Shown piece after piece: positions 1 through 12,514 of a stretch of DNA of 64,000 bases (its first letter is position 1; each line of letters begins with the position of its first letter). The notes beneath the pieces were generated by a model. That model was not told the origin of the DNA and did no database searches. It saw nothing but the letters and a program-made list of their open reading frames with translations. A program made the translations under genes and the position numbers. Source of the stretch: Hyphomicrobiales bacterium (GTDB lineage Bacteria > Pseudomonadota > Alphaproteobacteria > SPJN01); the NCBI GenBank assembly GCA_006844605.1, contig SPJN01000013.1, forward strand, positions 760-64,759, read 5' to 3'.

Positions 1-159
1 ATAATCGAACTGGTGTGACAGGCCTGTTGTGCCAACATCAATGACAATGGCGGATCCAACAGACTGGTTTCTGGAGAGACGAATGTCGCGCCGATCAAGA
101 TAACGGAGAACTTTATGGCGTGGCTCATGGCCAAAGGGCGGTTTGGTCTGTGTAGTCAT
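1..159 (-). CDS. hypothetical protein; only the 5' part is in the window (the gene runs off the window start)
   Basis: Seen in sequence. Reverse-strand ATG at 159-157 with an AAGGAG Shine-Dalgarno 8 nt upstream (plus-strand 'ggggggctcctt' at 160-171). The frame stays open through all 53 codons down to position 1 (MTTQTKPPFGHEPRHKVLRYLDRRDIRLSRNQ...). It is not in the supplied ORF track because no in-window stop exists. Same strand as the integrase and directly downstream of it. Confidence 0.35.
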   Translation of the reverse strand, partial: MTTQTKPPFGHEPRHKVLRYLDRRDIRLSRNQSVGSAIVIDVGTTGLSHQFDY

Positions 160-295
160 GGGGGGCTCCTTCTTGTTTTATTGTCTGCAAAGATTTCCCT
201 TTGCTAAATCCCAAGTGTTCAGGATCGACCAGATCGTCAAGAGCACTTCTGGGCGAATTGAAAATTTTTGTTCTGCGTTGTGTCTTTAGACATCT

Positions 296-1504
296 TCAGC
301 CTGTGCCGACGTCTTTTGACCCACTCGGATCTATTGGCAGTGCCTGCTCAAATTCCTTGGCAAGCAACCGATCAAAGGCAGATCCGTCTTGGCGGGTTAA
401 GTTGGGCACATAGCGGGAATAGACGTTGAACAGCATTTTTGTGGTCGTATGCCCCATCTGTTTGGCAATCCATTCTGGTGCCTCGCCCGCGGCAAGCCAT
501 AGCGTGGCGGCTGTGTGCCGCATGTGATAGGGACGGCGTTCTCGTAGGCCCAGATGGCGGAGCAGGGGATACCAAACACGCTGGGTGACATTGCGGTTCT
601 GGAGGGGTTGTCCATTCCGGGTGCAGAAAACAAAGTCAGACAGCTCGCCAGTGGCCTTCTTCTGATCCTGCAGGGCATCAAAGACCAATTGGTTCATCTG
701 CACTGCCCGGAATGAGCCATCGGTTTTCGTTGGGACAATTTTTCCCTGCACATAGGCTTGATGAACCAGAACCTCCCGCCGCTCGAAATCTACATTCTTC
801 CAAGGCAGGCCATCGATCTCGCTGGAACGCAATCCGGTGAAGAAGCGTACTGTGAAATAGTTCTTATAATCAGGACGGACCGTATCAATGATCTGCTTCA
901 CCTCAGCCAGGGTAAATGGTTCAACCTCAACCCTTGGTTCCTTTAACGGCTTGATGTTGCGGTAGGGATTGACGAACTCATAACGGTCGGCAGCTTCCGT
1001 TAGCACCATCCTTAAAGGCACCATGATGTGATTAACCCGTGCGGGGCTCAGCGTCTTGCCGGTTACAGGATTAGCGGACGCAATAGCCGCACGAAACTTT
1101 AGAAGGTCGGATTTTTTGATCGCATTAACCGGCAGCTTCCCGAACTGTGGCAACAGATAGAGGTCGAAATTAATATCCATCGTGTCGATATAGGATTGGC
1201 GCCATTCGACTTTCTTTTCAGCACGCCACTCTTCTGCGAATGCTGAAAACAAGGGAACATCCGCACGCATGGCAGCAGCGCGCTGGTCAAGCTTCCGAAA
1301 CTCTTCGGCCTTAGGGCTGTTCGGGAAGTATTTCCCATAGTCGAATCTCCCCAGCACCATCTCCGCTTCCATGCGCTTAACGATACCCTGCAGGCGCCTG
1401 CGGTGCTGTGGTGTGTCGGTGAGGCCGGTCGCTTCACGGCAACGCTGCCTTTTGTATTGGAAGTCGACATGAAGCATATCTCCGCGTTTGGTGATGGATG
1501 CCAT
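296..1504 (-). CDS. int: tyrosine-type site-specific recombinase / phage integrase
   Basis: 402 aa. C-terminal catalytic region typical of tyrosine recombinases (…HMRHTAATLWLAAGEAPEWIAKQMGHTTTKMLFNVYSRYV) with an N-terminal SAM-like/core-binding region. Placed next to a small excisionase-like gene on the same strand. Confidence 0.9.
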   Translation of the reverse strand: MASITKRGDMLHVDFQYKRQRCREATGLTDTPQHRRRLQGIVKRMEAEMVLGRFDYGKYFPNSPKAEEFRKLDQRAAAMRADVPLFSAFAEEWRAEKKVEWRQSYIDTMDINFDLYLLPQFGKLPVNAIKKSDLLKFRAAIASANPVTGKTLSPARVNHIMVPLRMVLTEAADRYEFVNPYRNIKPLKEPRVEVEPFTLAEVKQIIDTVRPDYKNYFTVRFFTGLRSSEIDGLPWKNVDFERREVLVHQAYVQGKIVPTKTDGSFRAVQMNQLVFDALQDQKKATGELSDFVFCTRNGQPLQNRNVTQRVWYPLLRHLGLRERRPYHMRHTAATLWLAAGEAPEWIAKQMGHTTTKMLFNVYSRYVPNLTRQDGSAFDRLLAKEFEQALPIDPSGSKDVGTG

Positions 1505-1514
1505 TGCTCACCCC

Positions 1515-1736
1515 CTAGTGTTGAGAGACAGGCAGCAATGAGGAGCCACCATCGTTCATATCGCTCTCAATCTGCTCCCAAATGTAAAGAATCTTCCGAC
1601 CGCCAAAGGGACGGATGTAGTGAATGCCCTCCAGAAGGACGGAATCTTTGAGGCGTTCACGAATGGTGCGGGGGTCGTACTTAATGAGCGAAGAAAGCTC
1701 TTCTGTCGTGAGGTAGGTGTTTTTCGCTTGCATCAT
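1515..1736 (-). CDS. AlpA/Xis-family DNA-binding excisionase-like protein
   Basis: 73 aa. HTH-like segment 'YLTTEELSSLIKYDPRTIRERL'. Lies 10 bp upstream of int on the same strand, the classic xis-int arrangement. The family call is by resemblance, not by computed search. Confidence 0.55.
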   Translation of the reverse strand: MMQAKNTYLTTEELSSLIKYDPRTIRERLKDSVLLEGIHYIRPFGGRKILYIWEQIESDMNDGGSSLLPVSQH

Positions 1737-1885
1737 CTGGTTATTCCTTTCATTTTGTTACTTCACATGACGACACATCAGGTTGCTGGGCGTTATGTCG
1801 TTCTAAATGACATATAGTATGCATAAGTGTACATGTCAAGGGCGTTTTGTATAAAAAAGAGACTTTATGTCGTTTTGGGTGACGT

Positions 1886-2089
1886 ATGATTAAGTGCCAC
1901 TTGTCCCGGATGATGGGAGAACGGAAGCTAAAGGTGATGGATGTTGCGCGGGAAACGGGCCTCCACCGCAATACTGTGACCTTGCTTTATAAGGAAACCG
2001 CAACACGAGTTGATCTCGAAGCGGTTGATAAGCTTTGTGAGCTTTTTGATTGCGAGGTTGGGGATCTTTTCGAACGGATCACGGATTAA
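1886..2089 (+). CDS. XRE/Cro-family helix-turn-helix transcriptional regulator
   Basis: 67 aa. HTH 'LKVMDVARETGLHRNTVTLLYKE' followed by '...LCELFDCEVGDLFE', typical of small XRE regulators. Divergent from xis-int, so a Cro/CI-like control module for the island is plausible. Confidence 0.6.
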   Translation: MIKCHLSRMMGERKLKVMDVARETGLHRNTVTLLYKETATRVDLEAVDKLCELFDCEVGDLFERITD

Positions 2090-2099
2090 AGGACCAACC

Positions 2100-3005
2100 A
2101 TGATTCCTGATTATCAAAGTTTAATGCTCCCTGTGTTGCAGGAAGGCGCCGAAGAGGAAATTAGCACACGCGATGCCATTGAAAATCTGGCTTCCAAGTA
2201 CGGGTTGTCAGAAGAGGATCGCGAGCAGATGCTGCCTAGCGGTAAACAGCGCACCTTTGATAATCGTGTAAATTGGGCGAAGGGCTACCTGAAGCAGGCT
2301 GGCTTAGTCAGATATACTGATCGCGGTGCCTATGTGGCGACTGATGAGGGGCGAAAAGTTCTCGCTACAAATCCAGAGAGAATCGACAACAAGTTTCTCA
2401 AGCAATACGAAGCCTTTCAAGAATTTCAAAATCGCAAAGGCACTCAAAGCGAAAAAGAAGAGACGCAGGATGGGGTTGATGATGCAATTACCCCGGATGA
2501 AGCGCTTCGCGCAGCGCACCGCAAAATCAATGCGTCACTAGCCGCCGACCTTTTGGGCCGAGTAAGAGAGGCCTCACCGCAATTTTTTGAAGAGCTGATT
2601 GTCGAATTATTGCTTGCGATGGGGTATGGCGGCACTTCAGAAGATGCTGCCCGCGCGTTGGGGCAATCGGGAGATAACGGCGTTGATGGTGTGGTCGATC
2701 AGGACCCTCTTGGCGTTGATCAGGTCTATGTCCAAGCAAAGCGATACGCGGAAACTAATAAAATAGGTTCCGGAGATATTCGCGATTTCTTTGGCGCGCT
2801 CAATCTAAAAAAGGCGCAAAAAGGTATATTCTTCACCACCTCTTCATTTAGTCCGGCGGCGGTTCAAACAGCGAAGGACCTTGGGATGCGGATTGTACTT
2901 ATTGACGGGGCGCAGCTAGCAAAGCTCATGATCAAATATGGAGTTGGGTGTCGGGAAGAGGAAGTTATCAGGCTGATGGGCATTGACGAAGAGTATTTCG
3001 ACTAA
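2100..3005 (+). CDS. mrr: Mrr-family type IV (modification-dependent) restriction endonuclease
   Basis: The track ORF 2010..3005 is trimmed to the ATG at 2100 (MIPDYQSLMLPVLQE…), which matches the usual Mrr N-terminus and follows 'aaaggacc' right after the XRE stop at 2089. N-terminal Mrr_N winged helix. C-terminal Mrr_cat region with 'GVDGVVDQD…VYVQAKRY' (D…QxK catalytic motif) and 'IFFTTSSFS'. Confidence 0.8.
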   Translation: MIPDYQSLMLPVLQEGAEEEISTRDAIENLASKYGLSEEDREQMLPSGKQRTFDNRVNWAKGYLKQAGLVRYTDRGAYVATDEGRKVLATNPERIDNKFLKQYEAFQEFQNRKGTQSEKEETQDGVDDAITPDEALRAAHRKINASLAADLLGRVREASPQFFEELIVELLLAMGYGGTSEDAARALGQSGDNGVDGVVDQDPLGVDQVYVQAKRYAETNKIGSGDIRDFFGALNLKKAQKGIFFTTSSFSPAAVQTAKDLGMRIVLIDGAQLAKLMIKYGVGCREEEVIRLMGIDEEYFD

Positions 3006-3058
3006 AGGGGTATTACCGCTGGTCCCTAGGAATGAATGTGAAATGAAAGAAGAATTCA

Positions 3059-5851
3059 TTGAACGCAGTTGAGATTGAACAAGCAATTACGGAATTGGCG
3101 GAACAGCCCTTTGACGGGCAAGAGTTTCCGTTCGATTTTTTGCGCGCGTTTGGCAATAAAGAAACCACGATCAAGCGCCTGAAAAAGGGTGACTCTAACA
3201 AATCAGACTTGGGTGGGGTGCTGCAACGAAGCCATATCCACATCAAAGTTTGTGAAGAAGGCAAGGTCACCCAAACGCTGGAAGCTTTGAAAGCAAGCCC
3301 CGCAACGACCAAGGCGAAGGCCAAATTTGTTCTTGCCACTGATGGTATTCAGCTAGAGGCGGAATACCTGAATACCGGTGAAACGGTCGCCTGCAATCAT
3401 AATGATTTTCCAGATCATTTTGGTTTCTTCCTGGCGCTTGCCGGTATCACCACTGTTAAGCAAATCCGCGAAAGCTCATTCGACATTAAGGCAACGGGCC
3501 GATTGAACCGGCTTTATATTGAGTTGCTCAAAGACAATCCGGAATGGAGCACGGCTGAACGCAGGCCGGATATGAACCATTTCATGGCGCGGTTGATCTT
3601 TTGCTTCTTTGCCGAAGATACAGACATCTTCCACGGGGATGACCTGTTTACCTCCACCATCGAGCAAATGAGTGCGCGGGATGCGTCTGATACCGATCAT
3701 GTGATTAGCGAAGTCTTTCGTGCCATGAACACGAAAACGGAAGATAGGGAAAAGGCAGGCATTCCCCGCTGGGCCAATGGCTTTCCATACGTGAACGGGG
3801 GGCTGTTTTCCGGTAGTACGGAAACGCCGAAATTTAGCAAGATTGCGCGGTCTTACCTGCTGCATATCGGCAACCTTGATTGGAAGAAGATCAACCCGGA
3901 TATCTTTGGCTCTATGATCCAGGCGGTGGCCGATGATGAAGAACGCGGCCATCTGGGGATGCACTACACCAGTGTGCCGAATATCCTGAAAGTTTTAAAC
4001 CCGCTGTTTTTGGATGATTTGCGGGCCGGGCTTGATGCCGCCGGTGATAGCGCGCAGAAGCTACTAAATCTACGCAAACGTATGGCGAAGATCAGGGTGT
4101 TTGATCCTGCCTGTGGCTCCGGCAACTTTCTGGTCATTGCCTATAAGGAAATGCGAGCCATTGAGGCGGAGATAAACAAGCGTCGTGGGGAAGAACATCT
4201 TAAAACGACTATTCCGCTTACCAACTTTCGCGGCATTGAGGTGCGGGACTTCCCGGCAGAGATAGCACGTCTAGCCCTCATCATCGCGGAATATCAATGC
4301 GATGTGACTTATCGTGGCCAGAAGGAGGCGTTGGCAGAGTTTCTGCCATTGAATAAAGAAAACTGGATCACTTGTGCAAACGCGCTGCGTGTTGATTGGC
4401 TGTCCATCTGTCCGCCCACTGGCACGGGTGTAAAACACTATGCCGATGATTTGTTTCATTCGCCGGTTGATCAGGCCGAGATCGATTTTGAGAACGAGGG
4501 GGGTGAGACCTACATTTGTGGGAACCCGCCATATTTGGGCAGTACATGGCAATCCAAGGAGCAAAAAGAAGATTTAAAGGCTATCTTTGATGGCAAGACC
4601 AAAACCTGGAAGTCATTGGATTATGTTGCTGGATGGGTGATGAAGGCGGCTGAATTTGGCAGACATACCAAATCCGTTTCTGCTTTTGTGACTACAAACT
4701 CAATTTGCCAAGGCCAACAGGTGCCAATTTTGTGGCCTTTAGTCTTTGAGACTGGCCATGAAATTACATTTGCCCACACGTCATTTAAGTGGGCAAATTT
4801 GGCAAGCAAAAACGCTGGTGTAACAGTAGTAGTTGTTGGGATAGGACGAGAATTCGGCGCGAGGCGCCTCCTATATTCCCATGATAACGACAATCATGAA
4901 ACCGTATTAGCAGCAACCAATATCAACGCCTACCTTGTGCCGTCAGGTGGCGTGCTGGTGAAAAAGCAACAACAGCCCATTTCAGACGTTCCACCGATGG
5001 TATTCGGAAACAAACCGGTTGATGGCGGGCATCTGATCCTTTCAAAGAGCGAGATAGGCGAATTGTGTTTGACCGACAACGAGGTCAGAAAATTTGTTAG
5101 GCCATTTCTGGGTTCGGAAGAGTTCATTTCGGGTAAACAGCGGTTTTGCCTATGGATTGATGATGGATGTGTTGATGACTTGTTGAGACATCCAATAGTA
5201 GCGCAGCGTGTTGCTGCTGTTGAGAAGATGAGACTGAACAGCACCAAAGTGGCAACAAATCGCGCAGCGGCGTGGCCCCATCGGTTTGATGAAATACGGC
5301 AAAGGGGGTCGGAAACATCTTTGTTGGTTCCAAGCGTTTCATCTGAAAGCAGACCATATTTGCCAGTTGGCTACGTCCCAGAAGGGACAATAGTTAGCAA
5401 CCTTGCATTCGCCTTGTTTGATGCGCCGCTCTGGGTAACTTCAGTAATTGCTTCACGAACTCATCTGGTGTGGGTGAAAACGGTGTGTGGGCAACTCGAA
5501 ACTCGCATTAGGTACTCCAATACCCTTGGTTGGAACACCTTTCCGTTACCTAAGCTGACCGAGAAAAACAAAGAAGACCTGACACGCTGCGCCGAAGATA
5601 TTTTGCTTGCGCGGGAGGCGCATTTTCCTGCGACCATTGCCGACCTGTATGATCCTGAGAAAATGCCAGAAGATTTGCGCCGGGCGCATGATCGCAATGA
5701 TGAGGTGTTGGAGCGCATCTATATCGGTCGCCGCTTCAAAAATGACACCGAACGCTTGGAAAAGCTTTTTGAGCTTTATACCAAGATGACCGCTAAACTG
5801 GAAACCTGTCGGCAAACGAAAGACAATAAAAAAGGGAAGGCACATGCATGA
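3059..5851 (+). CDS. MmeI-family type IIL/IIG restriction-modification enzyme (N-terminal endonuclease region, gamma-class N6-adenine methyltransferase, C-terminal target-recognition domain)
   Basis: 930 aa, TTG start at 3059. From memory it aligns along the whole length with MmeI (919 aa): 'LIFCFFAEDTDIF', 'FPYVNGGLF', 'FDPACGSGNFLV' (motif I), 'FRGIEVRDFPAEIARLALI', 'GNPPYLG' (motif IV) and the C-terminal 'LYDPEKMPEDLRRAH…LFELYTKMT'. In the putative PD-ExK endonuclease segment the sequence is 'ATDGIQLEAEYL' and does not obviously conserve the D…ExK spacing; see findings. Confidence 0.85.
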   Translation: MNAVEIEQAITELAEQPFDGQEFPFDFLRAFGNKETTIKRLKKGDSNKSDLGGVLQRSHIHIKVCEEGKVTQTLEALKASPATTKAKAKFVLATDGIQLEAEYLNTGETVACNHNDFPDHFGFFLALAGITTVKQIRESSFDIKATGRLNRLYIELLKDNPEWSTAERRPDMNHFMARLIFCFFAEDTDIFHGDDLFTSTIEQMSARDASDTDHVISEVFRAMNTKTEDREKAGIPRWANGFPYVNGGLFSGSTETPKFSKIARSYLLHIGNLDWKKINPDIFGSMIQAVADDEERGHLGMHYTSVPNILKVLNPLFLDDLRAGLDAAGDSAQKLLNLRKRMAKIRVFDPACGSGNFLVIAYKEMRAIEAEINKRRGEEHLKTTIPLTNFRGIEVRDFPAEIARLALIIAEYQCDVTYRGQKEALAEFLPLNKENWITCANALRVDWLSICPPTGTGVKHYADDLFHSPVDQAEIDFENEGGETYICGNPPYLGSTWQSKEQKEDLKAIFDGKTKTWKSLDYVAGWVMKAAEFGRHTKSVSAFVTTNSICQGQQVPILWPLVFETGHEITFAHTSFKWANLASKNAGVTVVVVGIGREFGARRLLYSHDNDNHETVLAATNINAYLVPSGGVLVKKQQQPISDVPPMVFGNKPVDGGHLILSKSEIGELCLTDNEVRKFVRPFLGSEEFISGKQRFCLWIDDGCVDDLLRHPIVAQRVAAVEKMRLNSTKVATNRAAAWPHRFDEIRQRGSETSLLVPSVSSESRPYLPVGYVPEGTIVSNLAFALFDAPLWVTSVIASRTHLVWVKTVCGQLETRIRYSNTLGWNTFPLPKLTEKNKEDLTRCAEDILLAREAHFPATIADLYDPEKMPEDLRRAHDRNDEVLERIYIGRRFKNDTERLEKLFELYTKMTAKLETCRQTKDNKKGKAHA

Positions 5852-5873
5852 CAGATGCAAGTGAAAACGCACC

Positions 5874-6818
5874 ATGGTAAAGGCAAGCAGAAATGGACTT
5901 AGGCTCGACGCTGATTTCACTGAGGATACGGTCGGCTTCGCGCTTGAATCGTTCTTGGCGGTGATGAGTTTTCCACGTCAGCGCTTTTCGATAGAGCCGT
6001 TCTCTCGTGCCAAGGAACGGTGGTTGGCCGCTGATGCGCGATTGCACGGTGATGTGCGCGGGTTTTGCCCCATTTATATGCAATTTAAAAGGCCGTCTGC
6101 GTATCCAGATTTTAGTACTGCGAAAATTATTAGGGAAAGAAAGGCGCTGAACCTTCTAACGTCGCCCCATGCCCTCTATTTTGATCTACGCCAGAAACAG
6201 CAACATCATTGGGATTTCCAGCACAATATTCTATTCCGGCTCGGTCAAAGGCTTCGCAGTCGTCAGCTTGGTGATGCCGCCTATGTTTGCCCTTTATTCC
6301 TAGAACGGTCCGCTTACAGATTCCATGTGCACTTGTCCGGACTTTCGCTGTGGCCGCGCTTTTGGAGACATTATCCTTGGGAATATGAAGAAGTTTTAGT
6401 AGGCGATGGCGGCAGGAAGATTCGCTTCGATCGTATCCCTGTGCTGGCGGAACACATAACTGTGCCGCCGCACAAAACGGTTTCAAGCGCCAAGCATCGT
6501 TACAGCTTCACGGAAGCAGGAAATGAACTGTGTTTCCACTCGCCAGAGGCCATTCCTGATGGAGCAACTACTCTCGCTGCATTTTTGGATGCGTTGTCAG
6601 GTCGCTTTCTGGGTGGTGGTGAAAAAATCCGGTCAGAGCAAGCAAACCAAGAACTTCAGGACTTGATGAATGAGGTCTTGGGCGATGGGCGTGAAGTCCC
6701 CCAGTCAATCATCGAGATGGACGCGTCTGACCCCATTGGAAACTGGTTGGCTTGGGGCGATTATTTGCGTCTGGAATTTGGAATAGATCAGTACGCGCTG
6801 GTAAGGTGGGAGGATTAG
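5874..6818 (+). CDS. hypothetical protein; candidate HamA-like (DUF1837-type) partner of the downstream helicase
   Basis: 314 aa. No family recognised from sequence. It starts 22 bp after the MmeI-like gene. Its 3' end carries the 'gggagg' Shine-Dalgarno for the GTG start of the helicase gene 3 bp downstream. It contains a possible nuclease-like 'GDVRGFCPIYMQFKRP' segment. The HamA assignment is inferred from gene order only. Confidence 0.45.
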   Translation: MVKASRNGLRLDADFTEDTVGFALESFLAVMSFPRQRFSIEPFSRAKERWLAADARLHGDVRGFCPIYMQFKRPSAYPDFSTAKIIRERKALNLLTSPHALYFDLRQKQQHHWDFQHNILFRLGQRLRSRQLGDAAYVCPLFLERSAYRFHVHLSGLSLWPRFWRHYPWEYEEVLVGDGGRKIRFDRIPVLAEHITVPPHKTVSSAKHRYSFTEAGNELCFHSPEAIPDGATTLAAFLDALSGRFLGGGEKIRSEQANQELQDLMNEVLGDGREVPQSIIEMDASDPIGNWLAWGDYLRLEFGIDQYALVRWED

Positions 6819-6821
6819 AAA

Positions 6822-8873
6822 GTGAGCAATGCTAAATCAATCCCCTCCGTTTCTGTCACTTACGCCCGCAATGGTAGCTCCAAGCAATCGAATGAGCTCG
6901 GAATGCGGGTTATGCAGGAACGCGCCTATGACCGGCGGGGGGAACAGTATCTGCTGATCAAGTCACCACCGGCATCGGGCAAAAGCCGTGCCTTGATGTT
7001 CATTGCGCTTGATAAGCTAAACAATCAGGGCTTGAAGCAGGCCATCATCGTTGTGCCGGAAAAGTCCATTGGGTCCAGCTTCAACAATGAACCTTTGTCT
7101 GATTTTGGATTTTATTGGGACTGGTCTGTCGAGCCAAAATGGAACCTGTGTAATGCGCCGGGGGAAGAAGGCGGCAAGGTTAAGTCCGTAAAGGCGTTTC
7201 TGGATAGTGATGATCAGGTGCTGGTTTGCACGCACTCCACATTCCGTTTTGCGATAGATAAGTTTGGTGCGGATGTATTTGATGATCGCCTAATTGCCAT
7301 TGATGAATTTCACCATGTCAGCGCAAACCCTGATAACAAGCTGGGCGCGCATTTGGGCGAGTTCATGGCGCGCGATAAAGTTCATATCGTGGCGATGACA
7401 GGCTCATATTTCCGTGGTGATGCTGTGCCGGTGATGGCGGCGGATGATGAATCCCGCTTTGCGACCGTCACCTATACCTATTATGAGCAGCTCAACGGCT
7501 ATGAGCACCTAAAGACGCTCAATATCGGCTATTATTTCTATTCGGGTTCCTATGTGGGCGAGATTTTGAGCGTTCTCGATCCGAGCGAAAAGACCATTGT
7601 GCATATCCCGAACGTGAATTCGCGGGAAAGCACGAAAGACAAGATCAAGGAAGTTGAAGATATCATTGAAGAGCTGGGAGACTGGAAGGGCACGGACCCT
7701 GTTACCGGATTCCATCTCGTCGAAACAGCCGATGGGCGCACATTGCGCATTGCGGATCTTGTGGAAGACGGTGCCAATAAACGCGATAAGGTATCGGCCG
7801 CGCTGAAAGACCCCACGCAAAAAGATAATCGTGATCATGTCGATATCATCATCGCGCTTGGTATGGCGAAAGAAGGGTTTGACTGGATTTGGTGTGAACA
7901 TGCACTAACCGTCGGGTATCGCTCTAGCCTGACAGAAATTATTCAGATCATTGGCCGCGCAACCCGTGATGCGCCGGGCAAGGAAAGCTCGCGCTTTACA
8001 AATTTGATTGCAGAGCCGGATGCCTCTGAAGAAGCGGTAACCGAAGCCGTCAATGATACGCTGAAAGCCATTGCCGCCAGCTTGTTGATGGAGCAGGTGC
8101 TTGCTCCGCGTTTTAACTTTACGCCGAAAGCGACATCCACTGGCCCAACCGAAGGCGTTGATTACGGTGAAGGCGGCTATGATCCTGAAAAGACCAATGT
8201 TGGGTTCTGCGAAGAAACAGGCCAATTCGAGATTGAGATCAACGGCCTTGTCGCTCCAAAAGGTGATGATGCGCAGCGCATTTGTAAGGAAGACTTGAAT
8301 GAAGTGATCACGGCATTCGTGCAGGACAAAACGAATGTTGAGCGTGGTATCTTTGATGAAGAAATGGTGCCCGAAGAACTGACACAGGTTCGTATGGGCC
8401 GTATCATCAAGGACAAATACCCTGAGCTTGATGAAGAAGACCAAGAGGCTGTCCGCCAACATGCGGTGGCCGCCCTCAACCTCGTGCAGGCCGCAGATGG
8501 GAAGATCAAGGAAACCGAAGGTGACGAATTTGGTGGCAGCACCGCATTGATTGATGGGGTGCGTAAGTTCGCGATGGATGTGCGAGACCTCGATATTGAT
8601 TTGATCGATAGGATCAACCCATTTGGCGAGGCCTATTCCATCTTGGCTAAATCGATGAGCGAAGAGAGCCTAAAGCAGGTGGCGGCGGTGATCGCTGCAA
8701 AGCGAACCAAAATCACCCCAGATGAGGCCCGTGATTATGCAATTCGCGCTGTGAAGTTTAAACGTGAACATGGGAGGGTTCCTTCTGTAAGCGCTGCTGA
8801 CCCGTGGGAACAAAAACTAGCTGAAGGTGCTGCAGCTTTTGTGCGGTTCAAGGACGAGGGCCGATATGAGTGA
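6822..8873 (+). CDS. superfamily-2 DExH-box helicase (candidate Hachiman HamB-like)
   Basis: 683 aa. GTG start with a strong Shine-Dalgarno (gggagg). Walker A 'SPPASGKSRAL', motif II 'AIDEFHHV' (DEFH), motif VI 'QIIGRATRD'. A C-terminal ~250 aa acidic extension follows. Confidence 0.8.
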   Translation: MSNAKSIPSVSVTYARNGSSKQSNELGMRVMQERAYDRRGEQYLLIKSPPASGKSRALMFIALDKLNNQGLKQAIIVVPEKSIGSSFNNEPLSDFGFYWDWSVEPKWNLCNAPGEEGGKVKSVKAFLDSDDQVLVCTHSTFRFAIDKFGADVFDDRLIAIDEFHHVSANPDNKLGAHLGEFMARDKVHIVAMTGSYFRGDAVPVMAADDESRFATVTYTYYEQLNGYEHLKTLNIGYYFYSGSYVGEILSVLDPSEKTIVHIPNVNSRESTKDKIKEVEDIIEELGDWKGTDPVTGFHLVETADGRTLRIADLVEDGANKRDKVSAALKDPTQKDNRDHVDIIIALGMAKEGFDWIWCEHALTVGYRSSLTEIIQIIGRATRDAPGKESSRFTNLIAEPDASEEAVTEAVNDTLKAIAASLLMEQVLAPRFNFTPKATSTGPTEGVDYGEGGYDPEKTNVGFCEETGQFEIEINGLVAPKGDDAQRICKEDLNEVITAFVQDKTNVERGIFDEEMVPEELTQVRMGRIIKDKYPELDEEDQEAVRQHAVAALNLVQAADGKIKETEGDEFGGSTALIDGVRKFAMDVRDLDIDLIDRINPFGEAYSILAKSMSEESLKQVAAVIAAKRTKITPDEARDYAIRAVKFKREHGRVPSVSAADPWEQKLAEGAAAFVRFKDEGRYE

Positions 8874-10053
8874 CCCTGACCTAGATGAATTGCGGAGTGA
8901 GTTGGCTGAATTTGCCAAACCTCAAAAGTCGATTAAGAGAACCGCCAAAGAAGAGCGAATCATTTCTGGGTTTGAGGAAATTCAGCGCTTTGTTGATGAG
9001 CACGGTCGTCCGACTGCACATGGCGAGGAGCGAGATATTTTTGAGCGGCTTTATGCAGTTCGTTTGGATCGCATTCGTGAGCAAGCTGAGTGCCGTGAAC
9101 TAGTCGAAGAACTGGATCATCAAGGCCTGCTAGGCGATCAGCCGATTGAAGTGGTAGCAGATGACATTGATGATGAAGCGCTTCTTGCTGAATTAGGTGC
9201 AGAAAGCGAAACATCTGACCTAACTCAATTGAAGCATGTTCGTTCCACGGCTGATCGAAAAGCCGCTGAGGAAATTGCGGATCGAAAGAAGTGTGAGGAT
9301 TTTGAAAAATTCAAACCTTTGTTTGAACGTCTTCGTGATGATCTCGATAAGGGTAGGCGCGAGACAAGGCCAGTTACAAAGGATTCAGGTTTTGTGAAAG
9401 CTGACATTAATGTCGGACAATTTTTTGTTCTTGGCGGCCAGATCGCATATGTTGCTAGCGTAGGCGAGCGGATAAAGGCCCCAAATGGCGATTATGACGC
9501 TCGGCTGCGCGTGATCTATGATAATGAAACTGAAAGCGACCTTCTGCAAAGATCACTTCAGCGGGCGTTATACAAGGACGAAGCGGGAAGGCGTGTTACA
9601 GAAGCAGACGCAGGACCATTGTTTTCCGGTGTAGCGGGTGAGGATGACGAGCAAAGCGGCACAATTTATGTCCTGCGTAGCAAATCGGACCATCCAACAA
9701 TTTCAGCTAATCGTGACCTGATCCACAAAATCGGTGTAACGGGTGGTGACGTGAAGAAGCGGATTGCGAATGCAAAGAATGATGCAACCTACCTTTTGGC
9801 TGATGTGGAGGTTGTGGCGACTTATGAGCTCTACAATATCAATAGAACCAAGCTCGAAAAGTTGATCCACAAGTTTTTTGACACGGCTCGCTTGGACATC
9901 GAGATTAAGGATAGGTTCGGCAATCCAGTTTCACCCCGTGAGTGGTTCATTGTGCCGTTGTTTGTTATCGATGAAATGGTTGATAAGCTGATGGAGGGGG
10001 CATTGGATCAGTGCCAATTTGATCCTACATCCGTTGCGATTAGGGTGAGATAA
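8866..10053 (+). CDS. T5orf172 (MUG113)/GIY-YIG-superfamily domain protein with coiled-coil N-terminus
   Basis: The track ORF 8827..10053 is trimmed to the ATG at 8866 (MSDPDLDEL…), which overlaps the helicase stop (ATGAGTGA) and indicates translational coupling. C-terminal 'GTIYVLRS…IHKIGVTGGDVKKRIAN…EWFIVP' resembles the T5orf172 / GIY-YIG-like fold. The N-terminal half is charged and helical. Confidence 0.55.
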   Translation: MSDPDLDELRSELAEFAKPQKSIKRTAKEERIISGFEEIQRFVDEHGRPTAHGEERDIFERLYAVRLDRIREQAECRELVEELDHQGLLGDQPIEVVADDIDDEALLAELGAESETSDLTQLKHVRSTADRKAAEEIADRKKCEDFEKFKPLFERLRDDLDKGRRETRPVTKDSGFVKADINVGQFFVLGGQIAYVASVGERIKAPNGDYDARLRVIYDNETESDLLQRSLQRALYKDEAGRRVTEADAGPLFSGVAGEDDEQSGTIYVLRSKSDHPTISANRDLIHKIGVTGGDVKKRIANAKNDATYLLADVEVVATYELYNINRTKLEKLIHKFFDTARLDIEIKDRFGNPVSPREWFIVPLFVIDEMVDKLMEGALDQCQFDPTSVAIRVR

Positions 10054-10220
10054 CCAGATTATTTGTTGAAGGATCGGGTGGCAATCTATTTGTGGGTGCG
10101 GATTTCTGTGTTATTCGGCATTTGGGGTGTTGGTCAGTTCAAACAATTCACTAATTGGCTATAAATGTGGTGGTATTTACACTTGAAGCCGGGCCTCATT
10201 TTTTCCATAATGAACTTTCC

Positions 10221-10397
10221 AACTGGTGCTCTTTACGCGTAATGCCTCTGGCATGGTCAGGTGTATAGCTAGACCCAAACTTATTGAGCGGATTATGGCG
10301 CGATAAGGCCAAATTTCCTTATCTAGCGCTCACAGGTTCGCTTATTTAGATAAGGAAATTTGGCCTTATCGCTTACTCTTAGGTATTGAGCCCAGTT
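10221..10397 (+). ncRNA. candidate retron msr-msd non-coding RNA (hypothetical)
   Basis: Intergenic region directly upstream of the effector + RT gene pair. An imperfect inverted repeat, 'aactggtgctc' at 10221-10231 against 'gagcccagtt' at 10388-10397, could serve as the a1/a2 pair (~177 nt apart). The 26-bp perfect hairpin at 10300-10372 inside it would be the msd stem. The boundaries are not proven. Confidence 0.25.
10300..10372. repeat. perfect inverted repeat (26-bp arms, 21-nt loop)
   Basis: 'gcgataaggccaaatttccttatctag' … 'tagataaggaaatttggccttatcgc'. No U-tract follows it. It is flanked by the 8-bp direct repeat 'tattgagc' at 10282-10289 and 10384-10391. Confidence 0.85.
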
Positions 10398-10399
10398 TG

Positions 10400-11353
10400 A
10401 TGACTCTGCAAGATGATGATCCTAGATATAGTATCATCAAAGGCGTTGATTTTTCCAAGTCTAGAATATTATTGGAGCCGCACATCATATTTGTTTGTGG
10501 CGGAGTTGTTGATATTACCGCAACAGAATGGAAGTCGTTGCGTAATCTGTTTATGAACTTGGCTGGGGGGGCGGATACACACGCGGACAGTTTCATGTTA
10601 GCGGAAAATTTTAAGGATTGGCGCGAAGGATACAAAAGTCTGTCAAAATTTGAGGAGGATATTGCTTTCATTTCTTCGCTGGTCGTTCTGTTTCTCGAGA
10701 GCCCCGGTGCATTAGTTGAGCTCGGGTTGTTCTATTCCAGTGGCCAAATTCGGAAGAAGTTATTTGTGGTAGTTCACAATTCCTATCATGATTCAGATTC
10801 ATTTATAAAACTCGGAATACTGGCCCCCTTGGAAGAGGTTAGCCAAGAATTAGTGCGCTCGTATGAGCTGGATCACGAAAATCCATCTGGCATTGATGAG
10901 CAAGCGGTCAAGGAGGTTTTAGATGACGTTTTGAATCAGGTAAACAATACGCCTAAGACTCAAGCGTTTAGTACGGACGATAGAGGACATCAGATATTCT
11001 TTGTCTATCAAATGATCAAAATGTCGGGTGCTCTTACTTTTCAGGAAATTGAAGATTTGATTGCAGAAAGTGAGTTAGAAGTCAAAAAATCTGAGATCAA
11101 GACTGCATTGTTTATTCTCGAAAAGTTTGGATTTGTTAGCAAAACAAAGGAGTCTTCCCAGTTCTTCTATTATGCAAGCAATCAAGAAATGGATCGGGTT
11201 GATCTTCATGTGGAGATTCAAGGGGAGGTCCGTAGTGTTACAGAACTGAAAATTGATCTAGGCCAATATTATCACCAGTTAGCAAAATCGAATGTCACAT
11301 TTAAGAGACGGCTGAAAGTGATGAACAGGCAGGATTCGGGAGAGGTTCAATGA
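10400..11353 (+). CDS. putative retron effector: SLOG/LOG/NDT-like Rossmann N-terminal domain plus C-terminal winged-helix domain
   Basis: The track ORF starts at TTG 10397; ATG 10400 is preferred. 'IIFVCGGVVD' and '…VVLFLESPGALVELGLFYSSG' resemble the LOG/NDT 'GGxG … PGGxGTxxE' signatures. The C-terminus 'FQEIEDLIAESELEVKKSEIKTALFILEKFGFV' looks like a winged helix. The stop overlaps the RT start (ATGA). Confidence 0.5.
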   Translation: MTLQDDDPRYSIIKGVDFSKSRILLEPHIIFVCGGVVDITATEWKSLRNLFMNLAGGADTHADSFMLAENFKDWREGYKSLSKFEEDIAFISSLVVLFLESPGALVELGLFYSSGQIRKKLFVVVHNSYHDSDSFIKLGILAPLEEVSQELVRSYELDHENPSGIDEQAVKEVLDDVLNQVNNTPKTQAFSTDDRGHQIFFVYQMIKMSGALTFQEIEDLIAESELEVKKSEIKTALFILEKFGFVSKTKESSQFFYYASNQEMDRVDLHVEIQGEVRSVTELKIDLGQYYHQLAKSNVTFKRRLKVMNRQDSGEVQ

Positions 11354-12300
11354 AGCCATCCGAACTGTTGCGCAATCAATTCTCTTTGTCATCGAACGAG
11401 TTGCAGCGGTACGTAAATTCGTGCCCTCATAGATACAAAACATACAATATTAGAAAGAGAAATGGTGGCGCACGGGAGATCTCCCAACCTTCTAGGGATT
11501 TAAAGATCGTCCAGAGGTTTCTGATTGATGAGCTGTTGATAGAGAATCTAATGGTTCATAAGGCGGCGACAGCTTATCGAAAGGGCCGGAACATTGTGGA
11601 TAATGCTCGGCCGCATTTAGGCAATCAGTTTCTGCTGAAAATTGATCTTGAGGAATTCTTCCCATCCATCAAAGGAGATGACTTCGAGAAATACCTTTCT
11701 GAGAAATTTCCGATGGAGGAAGCCGAAGTTGCCCTGCTGACTAGAATTTTCTTTAAATCTGATAATGGCGAGCTAAAGCTAAGTATTGGATCGCCTGGTT
11801 CGCCCCTAATTTCGAATGCTCTGATGTTTCGTTTTGATAATGTGATTTCAGATTATGCTGACAGGATGAATGTAGCTTATACGCGCTACTCAGATGATAT
11901 GACGTTCTCAACAAACGAACGAGGGGCTTTATTCGATTGGCCGAAAATGGTTGGAGACGAGCTGGGCAGGTTGGATTATCCCACTCTTAGACTTAACCCT
12001 GACAAAACTGTGTTCTCATCAAAGAAATTCAACCGTCATGTCACAGGTATTACGATTACAAATGAGGGTACTGCTTCGATCGGTAGAGGGCGAAAGCGAG
12101 AGTTGAGATCGAGGCTGTTCAATGTTCAAAATTTGAACGCGGAAGAGCGGCGGCAATTGAGGGGACATATTGCTTTTGCCGCACAGGTGGAGCCAGATTT
12201 TGTGGAAAAACTTGGACAAAAGTACGCTAACGAACTTCAAGCTTTGTCGCGCAGTGATCCTGATAACGTTGATGTAAATCCGTCAAAGAAGGATTCTTGA
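11350..12300 (+). CDS. retron-type reverse transcriptase
   Basis: 316 aa. RT motifs: 'RKRNGGAREISQP' (1), 'FLLKIDLEEFFPSI' (2), 'SIGSPGSPLISNALM' (B-like), 'YTRYSDDMTF' (YxDD). Also the two retron-diagnostic motifs 'NARPH' (NAxxH) and 'HVTGITI' (VTG). Confidence 0.85.
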   Translation: MKPSELLRNQFSLSSNELQRYVNSCPHRYKTYNIRKRNGGAREISQPSRDLKIVQRFLIDELLIENLMVHKAATAYRKGRNIVDNARPHLGNQFLLKIDLEEFFPSIKGDDFEKYLSEKFPMEEAEVALLTRIFFKSDNGELKLSIGSPGSPLISNALMFRFDNVISDYADRMNVAYTRYSDDMTFSTNERGALFDWPKMVGDELGRLDYPTLRLNPDKTVFSSKKFNRHVTGITITNEGTASIGRGRKRELRSRLFNVQNLNAEERRQLRGHIAFAAQVEPDFVEKLGQKYANELQALSRSDPDNVDVNPSKKDS

Positions 12301-12437
12301 TATAGGTCATCTAGGCTATAGGGATTTTGGGTGTTTCAATGTGGCGTAAAGTCTTGGGCACAATATGGACACAAAATGGTCACAGCGCAGTGCAGCCAAA
12401 ATAGCCGTTCTGTAGCCTGTTGATTTCATTGACAAAA

Positions 12438-12514
12438 TGGTGGGCGATACAAGATTTGAACTTGTGACCTCTGCCATGTCAAGGCAGCACTCTAACCAAC
12501 TGAGCTAATCGCCC
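12438..12514 (-). tRNA. tRNA-Val (anticodon GAC)
   Basis: The reverse complement reads GGGCGATTAGCTCAGTTGGTTAGAGTGCTGCCTTGACATGGCAGAGGTCACAAGTTCAAATCTTGTATCGCCCACCA. Cloverleaf: 7-bp acceptor stem, anticodon stem CTGCC/GGCAG with loop TTGACAT (anticodon GAC), T-loop TTCAAAT, and an encoded CCA. Confidence 0.9.

Follow-up and report, generated by a model that had tools for sequence, protein, structure and literature searches.

The question raised by the locus described here is what a long perfect hairpin does in front of the genes of an effector and of a reverse transcriptase (RT) in a Hyphomicrobiales bacterium, a member of a marine alphaproteobacterial lineage. The window, i.e., the whole stretch of DNA that was analysed, comprises 64 kb of contig SPJN01000013.1, and the hairpin belongs to an element at 10221-10397 of its + strand. 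The first-pass annotation had proposed a retron msr-msd at this place, and that reading is borne out by the St85-family effector and RT, both above curated cut-offs, by a sub-threshold match to the Rfam msr family, by covariation and by a conserved G. The element is almost certainly the msr-msd non-coding RNA (ncRNA) gene of a type II-A1 (St85/Sen2 family) retron, whose operon continues with an effector of nucleoside deoxyribosyltransferase (NDT)-like and winged-helix domains and the RT. It is a divergent new member within a known retron family, not a new type of system, and knowledge of retron biology is unchanged by it.

The protein-coding part of the operon consists of two genes:

10400-11353 (+), retron effector (RcaT-like), N-terminal NDT-like domain and C-terminal winged helix
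11350-12300 (+), retron reverse transcriptase, with a 4-nucleotide (nt) overlap with the effector stop

The effector matches the PADLOC profile NDT_II-A at 6.5e-75 and the NCBIfam model NF038232, 'retron St85 family effector protein', with 202.8 bits at a cut-off of 100. Its NDT domain (residues 29-166) matches the Ec86 effector chains of the PDB at 8.7e-8, and the C-terminal residues 203-268 give a weak match to Penicillinase_R, a winged helix-turn-helix (wHTH) domain of BlaI/CopY-like type. Database homologues are named 'retron St85 family effector protein', and one record holds an identical protein of 317 amino acids (aa), a length that fits a start at the ATG at 10400 and not at the in-frame TTG at 10397, the position at which the outer repeat of the element ends. 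The RT matches PADLOC RT_II-A at 2.6e-109 and NCBIfam NF038233, 'retron St85 family RNA-directed DNA polymerase', with 321.7 bits (cut-off 235), and its closest solved structure is the RT of Ec78/Eco7 (4.5e-60). The catalytic motif is YSDD, a YADD variant that five relatives also have, and it is accompanied by NAxxH, in the form NARPH, and by VTG. The protein is thus a clade-assigned retron RT with all three of the YxDD, NAxxH and VTG motifs, and the effector profiles, the wHTH match and the gene order place the system in type II-A1, the St85 family. Both open reading frames (ORFs) are intact and of full length.

The sequence 3′ of the stop of the upstream gene (10053) is a non-coding gap that lasts until the effector ATG, and no ORF of at least 50 aa is found on the + strand of 10054-10399. 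The ncRNA within this gap can be divided into the following parts:

10221-10236 (+), a1 arm, AACTGG-t-GCTC-tt-TAC, paired with a2 in minimum free energy folds and in the RNAalifold consensus
10237 (+), predicted branching (priming) guanosine, first base 3′ of the a1/a2 stem, opposite G10382 and aligned to the conserved G of Rfam msr
10242-10254 (+), msr stem-loop 1 (SL1), ATGCC-TCT-GGCAT, seen in the folds; helix 2 of the family alignment, with compensatory changes in 5/5 pairs
10255-10275 (+), msr stem-loop 2 (SL2), GGTC-a-GGT-GTATA-GCT-a-GACC, from the Rfam msr alignment; helix 3
10276-10285 (+), conserved single-stranded linker L1, with TTATTG (10281-10286), the predicted reverse-transcription stop
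10286-10291 (+), RNA side of the RNA-DNA heteroduplex, 6 nt, predicted by analogy with Eco7
10286-10381 (+), msd template, with boundaries drawn by Eco7 geometry
10300-10372 (+), long msd hairpin, perfect 26-bp stem (10300-10325 / 10347-10372) with a 21-nt loop
10383-10397 (+), a2 arm, GTA-tt-GAGC-CCAGTT, preceded by G10382; from the fold, the RNAalifold consensus and the family alignment

The RNA fold of 10218-10400 reaches -77.8 kcal/mol (z = -8.2 against dinucleotide shuffles, with 0/200 shuffles as stable) and shows two small hairpins and the long one enclosed by the outer stem; a separate fold gives a similar structure at z = -6.4. The folding that the first-pass annotation had advised reproduces both of the repeats on which its proposal was built. 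The inverted repeat has the described geometry, with arms of 26 nt that are 100% complementary, a loop of 21 nt and no U-tract on the 3′ side, and the outer repeat aactggtgctc / gagcccagtt is equally real, being composed of AACTGG/CCAGTT and GCTC/GAGC with one bulged T. The predicted multicopy single-stranded DNA (msDNA) is the reverse complement of 10286-10381, about 96 nt long. It would begin with a 5′ tail of 9 nt, continue with the hairpin of 73 nt and a linker of 8 nt, and end in 6 nt that pair with the msr; folded as DNA, this sequence reaches -31.3 kcal/mol (z = -9.0).

The conservation of the element was followed across 80 loci with relatives of the effector, one genome per species. 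The closest effector relatives, 39-45% identical, come from Sulfitobacter, Amylibacter, Celeribacter, Roseovarius, Leisingera, Palleronia and a Hyphomicrobiales metagenome-assembled genome. A hairpin finder detects a long hairpin 5′ of the effector in all of the first 20 loci (20/20), and the stem sequences differ while the pairing is kept. When the window and its seven closest loci are aligned by MAFFT, the msr is highly conserved, and RNAalifold, unaided, finds a1/a2, the two msr hairpins and that of the msd in this alignment. The covariance model R1, built from the same alignment, gives a full-length match on the effector strand, directly 5′ of the effector, in 75/80 loci with default filters. 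With the filters off, one more locus (L052) yields a full-length match and another (L066) a partial one, covering model positions 23-152. The element is thereby kept in 77/77 examinable loci, the other 3/80 ending 63-101 nt 5′ of the effector. The RT follows directly after the effector in 78/81 loci, and the remaining three are cut by contig ends. The hairpin, together with the msr and a1/a2, co-occurs with the effector-RT pair in unrelated genomic contexts. Homologous loci that keep both genes and lack the hairpin had been named beforehand as a finding that would speak against a retron, as had dispersal of the element as a repeat family; all examinable loci retain a hairpin of varying sequence and retained pairing, and no repeat family is seen in the window. 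R1 matches the 64-kb window only at 10221-10397, apart from an echo of the palindrome on the minus strand, and the hairpin arm has no other copy in the window with up to 3 mismatches (0 expected in shuffles).

The main covariation count is based on A4, a model-guided alignment of the family. Standard pairs occupy 94.4% of its cells, compared with 62.7% when partners are shuffled and 30-43% after a shift of the 3′ partners by 1-3 columns. Double-sided changes are present in 42/46 pairs, and the covariation score of 0.641 falls to 0.154 in shuffles and to 0.10 or less once partners are slid. In the a1/a2 stem (helix 1), 96% of cells are paired and 7/7 pairs show double changes; in SL2 (helix 3), 96.8% are paired, around an invariant GUC/GAC core; and in the msd stem (helix 5), the figure is 96.9%, and 21/21 pairs show double changes. 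SL1 takes the forms GTGCG/CGCAC or CGCTC/GAGCG in relatives. The use of G-U pairs differs between the two halves of the RNA. The msr stems use them freely (17, 11 and 23 sequences at three pairs), whereas at any of the 21 pairs of the msd stem at most one of about 77 sequences has a G-U. This fits a stem that has to form in a complementary DNA copy too, where G-U is not tolerated, and it supports the boundary drawn between msr and msd. A pairing of a1 with the first TATTGAGC copy, which is the closing stem of the Rfam msr-only model, was considered as well and rejected, as its columns do not covary (63.8% vs 64.3% in shuffles, score 0.155 vs 0.159).

The family alignment also corrects the description of the priming stem. 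A conserved branching G 3′ of a1 had been expected, and it is found; its position is 10237, not the base directly after 'gctc'. The a1/a2 repeat is paired as proposed and had been drawn too short: it extends through a 2x2 U.U loop to TAC/GTA (10234-10236 / 10383-10385). Since the stem continues inward past this loop, the branch G is the base at 10237. Most family members have CTCTTTA(C) as a1 and (G)TAAAGAG as a2, which gives 7-8 consecutive pairs followed at once by the G; the forms are TTTA|G with a2 TAAAGAG, or TTTAC|G with a2 GTAAAGAG. The C of a1 and the extra G of a2 are jointly present or jointly absent (57 C-G, 3 A-U and 25 gaps at pair 17-299), so that in every case the first base left unpaired beyond the stem is the G. 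The branch-G column is G in nearly all 77 sequences, always after the last a1 pair. The RNA is thus adjacent to the RT gene pair, has paired ends and carries a conserved G directly 3′ of a1, as a retron ncRNA does, and the msd is a stable, covarying hairpin whose use as a template is predicted. The A-TTG of the linker is invariant across the family alignment.

The U.U loop (10232-10233 / 10386-10387) is common to 7/8 members of the clade, including L001-L005 and L007; in L006 (CCCTTAC/GTAGGGG), a G-U wobble pair takes the place of one of the two mismatches. Such conservation argues that the loop is tolerated or selected. Outside it, the 6-bp extension of a1/a2 is strong in the window (-8.6 kcal/mol) and lineage-specific; as a family-wide trait it gives a weak signal, with cognate duplexes at -1.97 vs -1.61 kcal/mol for permuted partners. 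The proposal that the ncRNA abuts the first retron gene holds in the window, and this geometry is limited to the window and its closest relative.

The a1 side of the window is 10 nt longer than in relatives, and the promoter-like hexamers have moved upstream equally. They form the following feature:

10183-10211 (+), putative sigma-70 promoter of the retron operon, -35 TTGAAG (10183-10188), 17-nt spacer, -10 CATAAT (10206-10211)

Transcription would start at about 10218. The TTGAAG-17-CATAAT pair is not significant by itself in a promoter consensus scan of the window; a TTGxxx-16/17-TAxxxT pair stands at the equivalent place just 5′ of a1 in five relatives (L002, L003, L004, L005 and L007). 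The distance to GCTC is 16 nt in the window vs 6 nt in these five.

The Rfam msr model RF00170 matches 10228-10292 (+) over the full model length with E = 2.5e-4. The ncRNA copy of the window is too divergent to be detected at standard RNA-family thresholds, and it is a divergent msr homologue rather than a formal Rfam member. Among 20 gammaproteobacterial relatives, the positions identified as homologous by R1 pass the Rfam gathering score for msr in 17/20, and the adjacent msd passes STnc400 (RF02058) in 7/20. In the chromosomes of Escherichia coli, effector-RT pairs annotated by PGAP as 'retron St85 family' are preceded by an unannotated ncRNA that matches R1 at 65-79 bits in all three examined, two of which adjoin P4-like satellite genes. 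The window ncRNA thus belongs to the same covariance-model family as the PGAP-annotated E. coli retrons of the St85 family, I-A-like loci and loci that pass Rfam msr/STnc400. Standard annotation would half-see the element: both proteins are named automatically, and the ncRNA falls below the Rfam msr threshold and is missed by STnc400.

STnc400, which is described as 'Gammaproteobacterial sRNA' (small RNA), matches the msd half, directly after the msr match, in loci L065, L045, L079, L029, L041, L049 and L021 (~2780-2960). This 'sRNA' family appears to be the msd region of retrons and not an independent sRNA. As an independent msd call for the window, STnc400 was dropped, since it gives no match at E up to 10.

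Type II-A1 retrons combine an NDT-like, DNA-binding effector with an RT of clade 1 and an ncRNA shared with type I-A, and Sen2/St85, Vc81 and Ec73 are examples (Mestre et al. 2020, PMC7736814). The order of the window, from msr-msd to the NDT and wHTH effector (RcaT/ORF323-like) and to the RT, is that of Sen2 (St85, Salmonella Typhimurium), Eco9 and Vmi1. The ncRNA of the Sen2/St85 type is also laid out in the same way, with a1/a2, the branch G within TTTA(C)G, a pair of msr hairpins, the TTATTG linker and, for the msd, a long hairpin. The window differs from it in several respects. Its effector shares only about 30% identity with the recovered members from enterobacteria and further gammaproteobacteria, its a1/a2 core has the conserved U.U loop, a1 is longer, and the promoter lies 10 nt further upstream. 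The sequence of the msd stem is unrelated and without a GATC (Dam) site, whereas GATC stands atop the stem in many gammaproteobacterial members, and the msDNA is predicted to be about 96 nt vs 85 nt. The St85-type retrons thereby gain an alphaproteobacterial (roseobacter-like) clade, characterised by the unusual, conserved U.U break in the priming stem and by an msd stem whose sequence has no relation to that of gammaproteobacterial members.

The closest solved RT belongs to Retron-Eco7 (Ec78) of type I-A, and the ncRNA-RT module is common to I-A and II-A1 (PMC7736814). In the cryo-electron microscopy structure of Eco7, the branch G0 faces a G, SL1 falls within 0 to -17 and SL2 spans -18 to -39 (PMC12673091). 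A 10-nt linker follows, in which A(-47) and U(-49) fix the reverse-transcription stop, and then a 6-bp RNA-DNA heteroduplex (PMC12673091). The Eco7 msr maps almost base for base on the window: the end of SL1 at 10254 corresponds to -17, and the branch G is opposite a G in both. Counted from SL2, A10283 and U10285 would correspond to A(-47) and U(-49), which makes the TTATTG linker the probable reverse-transcription stop, and SL2 is predicted from the Eco7 and Eco1 structures to be the hairpin bound by the RT thumb. The effectors set the two systems apart, as those of Eco7 (PtuA, an ATPase, and PtuB, an HNH nuclease) come after the RT, and the NDT-wHTH effector of the window comes before it. 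Retron-Eco1 (Ec86) of type II-A3 has an effector of the same NDT-like/N-glycosidase and DNA-binding class, and its msDNA is a phage sensor; its RT clade is more distant (4e-29), its gene order is different, and filaments and NAD(P)+ hydrolysis have been shown for Eco1 only.

The mechanism proposed for the locus is carried over by homology from St85/Sen2, Eco9, Ec78/Eco7 and Ec86/Eco1. The RT would bind the msr hairpins, and DNA synthesis would be primed from the 2′-OH of G10237. The template would be copied from 10381 leftwards through the hairpin up to the stop at the TTATTG linker, at about 10286, with RNase H removing the template during msd copying. The msDNA of about 96 nt would remain bound to the RT, and this complex would keep the effector toxin inactive, in the role of an antitoxin. 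Phage functions that methylate, cut or bind the msDNA would lift the inhibition, and the effector would then kill or arrest the infected cell (abortive infection). In the known systems, RT-msDNA is the antitoxin to the RcaT-type effector, and exonuclease VII trims four nucleotides in St85/Ec78-type retrons (Bobonis et al., bioRxiv 10.1101/2020.06.22.160168). The triggers described are phage Dam methylation or RecE degradation of the msDNA for Sen2/Eco9, Dcm methylation for Eco1, in which the homologous N-glycosidase effector hydrolyses NAD(P)+, and a flap endonuclease for Eco7 (PMC12640716, PMC12673091). The msd of the window is without GATC, and thus a Dam-type trigger is not predicted. The base-level map of the promoter, a1/a2, branch G, termination motif and 96-nt msDNA makes the locus testable and usable, e.g., as a retron scaffold for single-stranded DNA in marine alphaproteobacteria.

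Several points weigh against the assignment to a functioning retron. The A4 alignment was fitted to the model structure and is therefore biased toward pairing. The slid controls and the MAFFT-only alignment of 8 sequences, in which compensatory changes are found in 15/46 pairs, lessen this concern, and both indicate that the covariation signal is real. The RF00170 score of 38.2 bits is below the gathering score of 52, and STnc400 has no match in the window at E up to 10. The core CTCTTTAC/GTAAAGAG duplex, continuous in most of the family, is broken in this clade by the U.U loop, and the stem of the window additionally carries the bulged T, so it is weaker than in characterised members. The production of msDNA by this locus is as yet a computational prediction, and the ends of the 96-nt msDNA, the promoter and the phage trigger are predicted likewise. 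The toxicity of the effector, its neutralisation by RT-msDNA and its triggering by phage would hold here as they do for Sen2/Eco9; the biochemical activity and toxicity route of RcaT-type effectors are still called unclear (PMC13645617).

Some of these points would suit a decayed or inactive retron, in which the sequence signature is kept and no msDNA is made. The a1/a2 core has a 2x2 mismatch and a bulge that are absent from most of the family, the Rfam score is sub-threshold, and the RT has YSDD instead of the usual YADD. However, YSDD recurs in the five relatives, the U.U loop is kept by 7/8 clade members, and the 6-bp outer extension compensates for it in the window. With both ORFs intact, of full length and overlapping by 4 nt, the 26-bp stem perfect, the motifs intact and the conservation clade-wide, decay is unlikely. 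The role of the hairpin itself can be questioned more directly. A palindrome between two co-oriented genes might be a terminator or attenuator of the upstream T5orf172 gene, or a double-stranded DNA operator through which the effector regulates its own expression by its winged helix, and in neither case a template for the RT. The BlaI/CopY-like wHTH domain of the effector and the GATAAGG...CCTTATC half-sites in each arm are in line with the operator. There is no U-tract 3′ of the hairpin for a terminator, and a terminator scan catches a sub-stem only; the self-complementarity of the arms also occurs in I-A-like retrons, the effectors of which are without wHTH. Both explanations leave the joint travel of msr, a1/a2 and hairpin with the RT unexplained, and the avoidance of G-U in the stem suits a DNA product. 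A regulatory function in place of the template is accordingly very unlikely, and an operator role may exist besides the msd role.

The mobile palindromic element that the first-pass annotation had offered as an alternative is the least probable of all, to a degree that makes it negligible. A miniature inverted-repeat transposable element (MITE) or repetitive extragenic palindromic (REP)-like sequence, inserted with an 8-bp target duplication, would account for the identical 8-nt copies of TATTGAGC, which are indeed present at 10282-10289 and 10384-10391 and flank the hairpin, but they do not abut it, lying 10 nt and 11 nt away. These copies are two distinct conserved segments: the invariant TTATTG termination linker and three variable bases make up the first, and a2 the second. 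In relatives the two differ from each other, e.g., TTATTGTTC vs GTAATGAGC in L004, and the pairing of a1 with the first copy does not covary. Moreover, the arm and the whole element are single-copy in the 64-kb window, and in all 77 examinable loci the hairpin stands at the same position, with different stem sequences and retained pairing.

A further feature of this msd stem is that each of its 26-nt arms is itself an inverted repeat, GATAAGG-N8-CCTTATC in the window. A stem with such double symmetry implies that the template RNA or the msDNA could fold as one long or as two short hairpins. A sizeable share of IA/IIA1 retrons has this double symmetry, with arm-internal repeats that vary by lineage; the arms of other lineages contain TGAAGTC/GACTTCA, CCGCAGA/TCTGCGG, ACGTGAGG/CCTCACGT or TAGAAAA/TTTTCTA. 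The upstream regions of loci L001-L080 and L086-L114 and the window were included in this comparison, and shuffling was performed for each sequence separately, because the register differs between clades and fixed-column counting of arm-internal pairs is thereby barred. Compared with shuffled arms, 47 dereplicated arms show a significant excess, with a combined Fisher p of 1.3e-9 when the longest internal stem is scored and of 2e-13 when the folding energy is. The property is not universal, as 26-38% of the arms are individually significant; for the window, p = 0.012. It is also present in I-A-like retrons of viral contigs, the effectors of which have no winged helix (7 dereplicated arms, Fisher p of 1.5e-5 for the energy).

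The arm palindrome was also considered as a site for a dimer of the winged-helix effector. This candidate is weakened by the spacing of the half-sites, which ranges from about 7 to 16 nt across lineages, and by the presence of the feature in I-A-like retrons lacking the winged helix, so an effector-dimer site is not the simplest explanation. A speculative proposal, improbable though less so than the alternatives to the msd reading discussed above, is that the double symmetry has been selected as a conformational switch of the shared ncRNA-RT module or as a feature for symmetric recognition. If true, the symmetry could ease the unwinding of the template in reverse transcription or act as a palindromic bait for phage methyltransferases or nucleases. 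Alternatively, it may have arisen as a side effect of the way in which hairpins grow. The msDNA of the Eco7 complex forms one long stem-loop (PMC12673091). No mention of arm self-complementarity was found in the retron literature searched, and it may be a new observation.

The retron closes, as its last cassette, a stretch of low GC (42-51% from 1 to ~12400 vs ~57% beyond), which abuts the 3′ end of the tRNA-Val(GAC) gene at 12438-12514 (-). The genes preceding the retron in this stretch are:

296-1504 (-), tyrosine integrase with an Arm DNA-binding domain
2010-3005, Mrr-type restriction endonuclease
3059-5851, MmeI-family restriction-modification enzyme
5874-6818, unknown ORF
6822-8873, DEAD/ResIII-type helicase, 683 aa
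8827-10053, T5orf172/MUG113 protein, 408 aa, with a C-terminal, GIY-YIG-like domain

The region 1-12514 is a typical tRNA-associated defence island. An att-type repeat of the tRNA-Val end was sought near the integrase, in the first 600 nt, where no shared word of at least 10 nt was found, and the left border of the island was not located. The helicase and T5orf172/MUG113 proteins have no NCBIfam match and only faint PADLOC matches (PbeA, PDC-S57). Their genes overlap by 47 nt, and the same pair lies beside a retron on an independent contig (L081). They may form an uncharacterised two-gene defence module.

Two Xenorhabdus loci contain a further structured RNA, the C4 antisense RNA (RF01695), an immunity RNA of P1/P7 phage type, about 340 nt 5′ of the retron ncRNA:

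L056, 2304-2389 (-), C4 antisense RNA
L057, 2301-2386 (-), C4 antisense RNA

The position of the C4 RNA beside these retrons suggests a prophage or satellite context.

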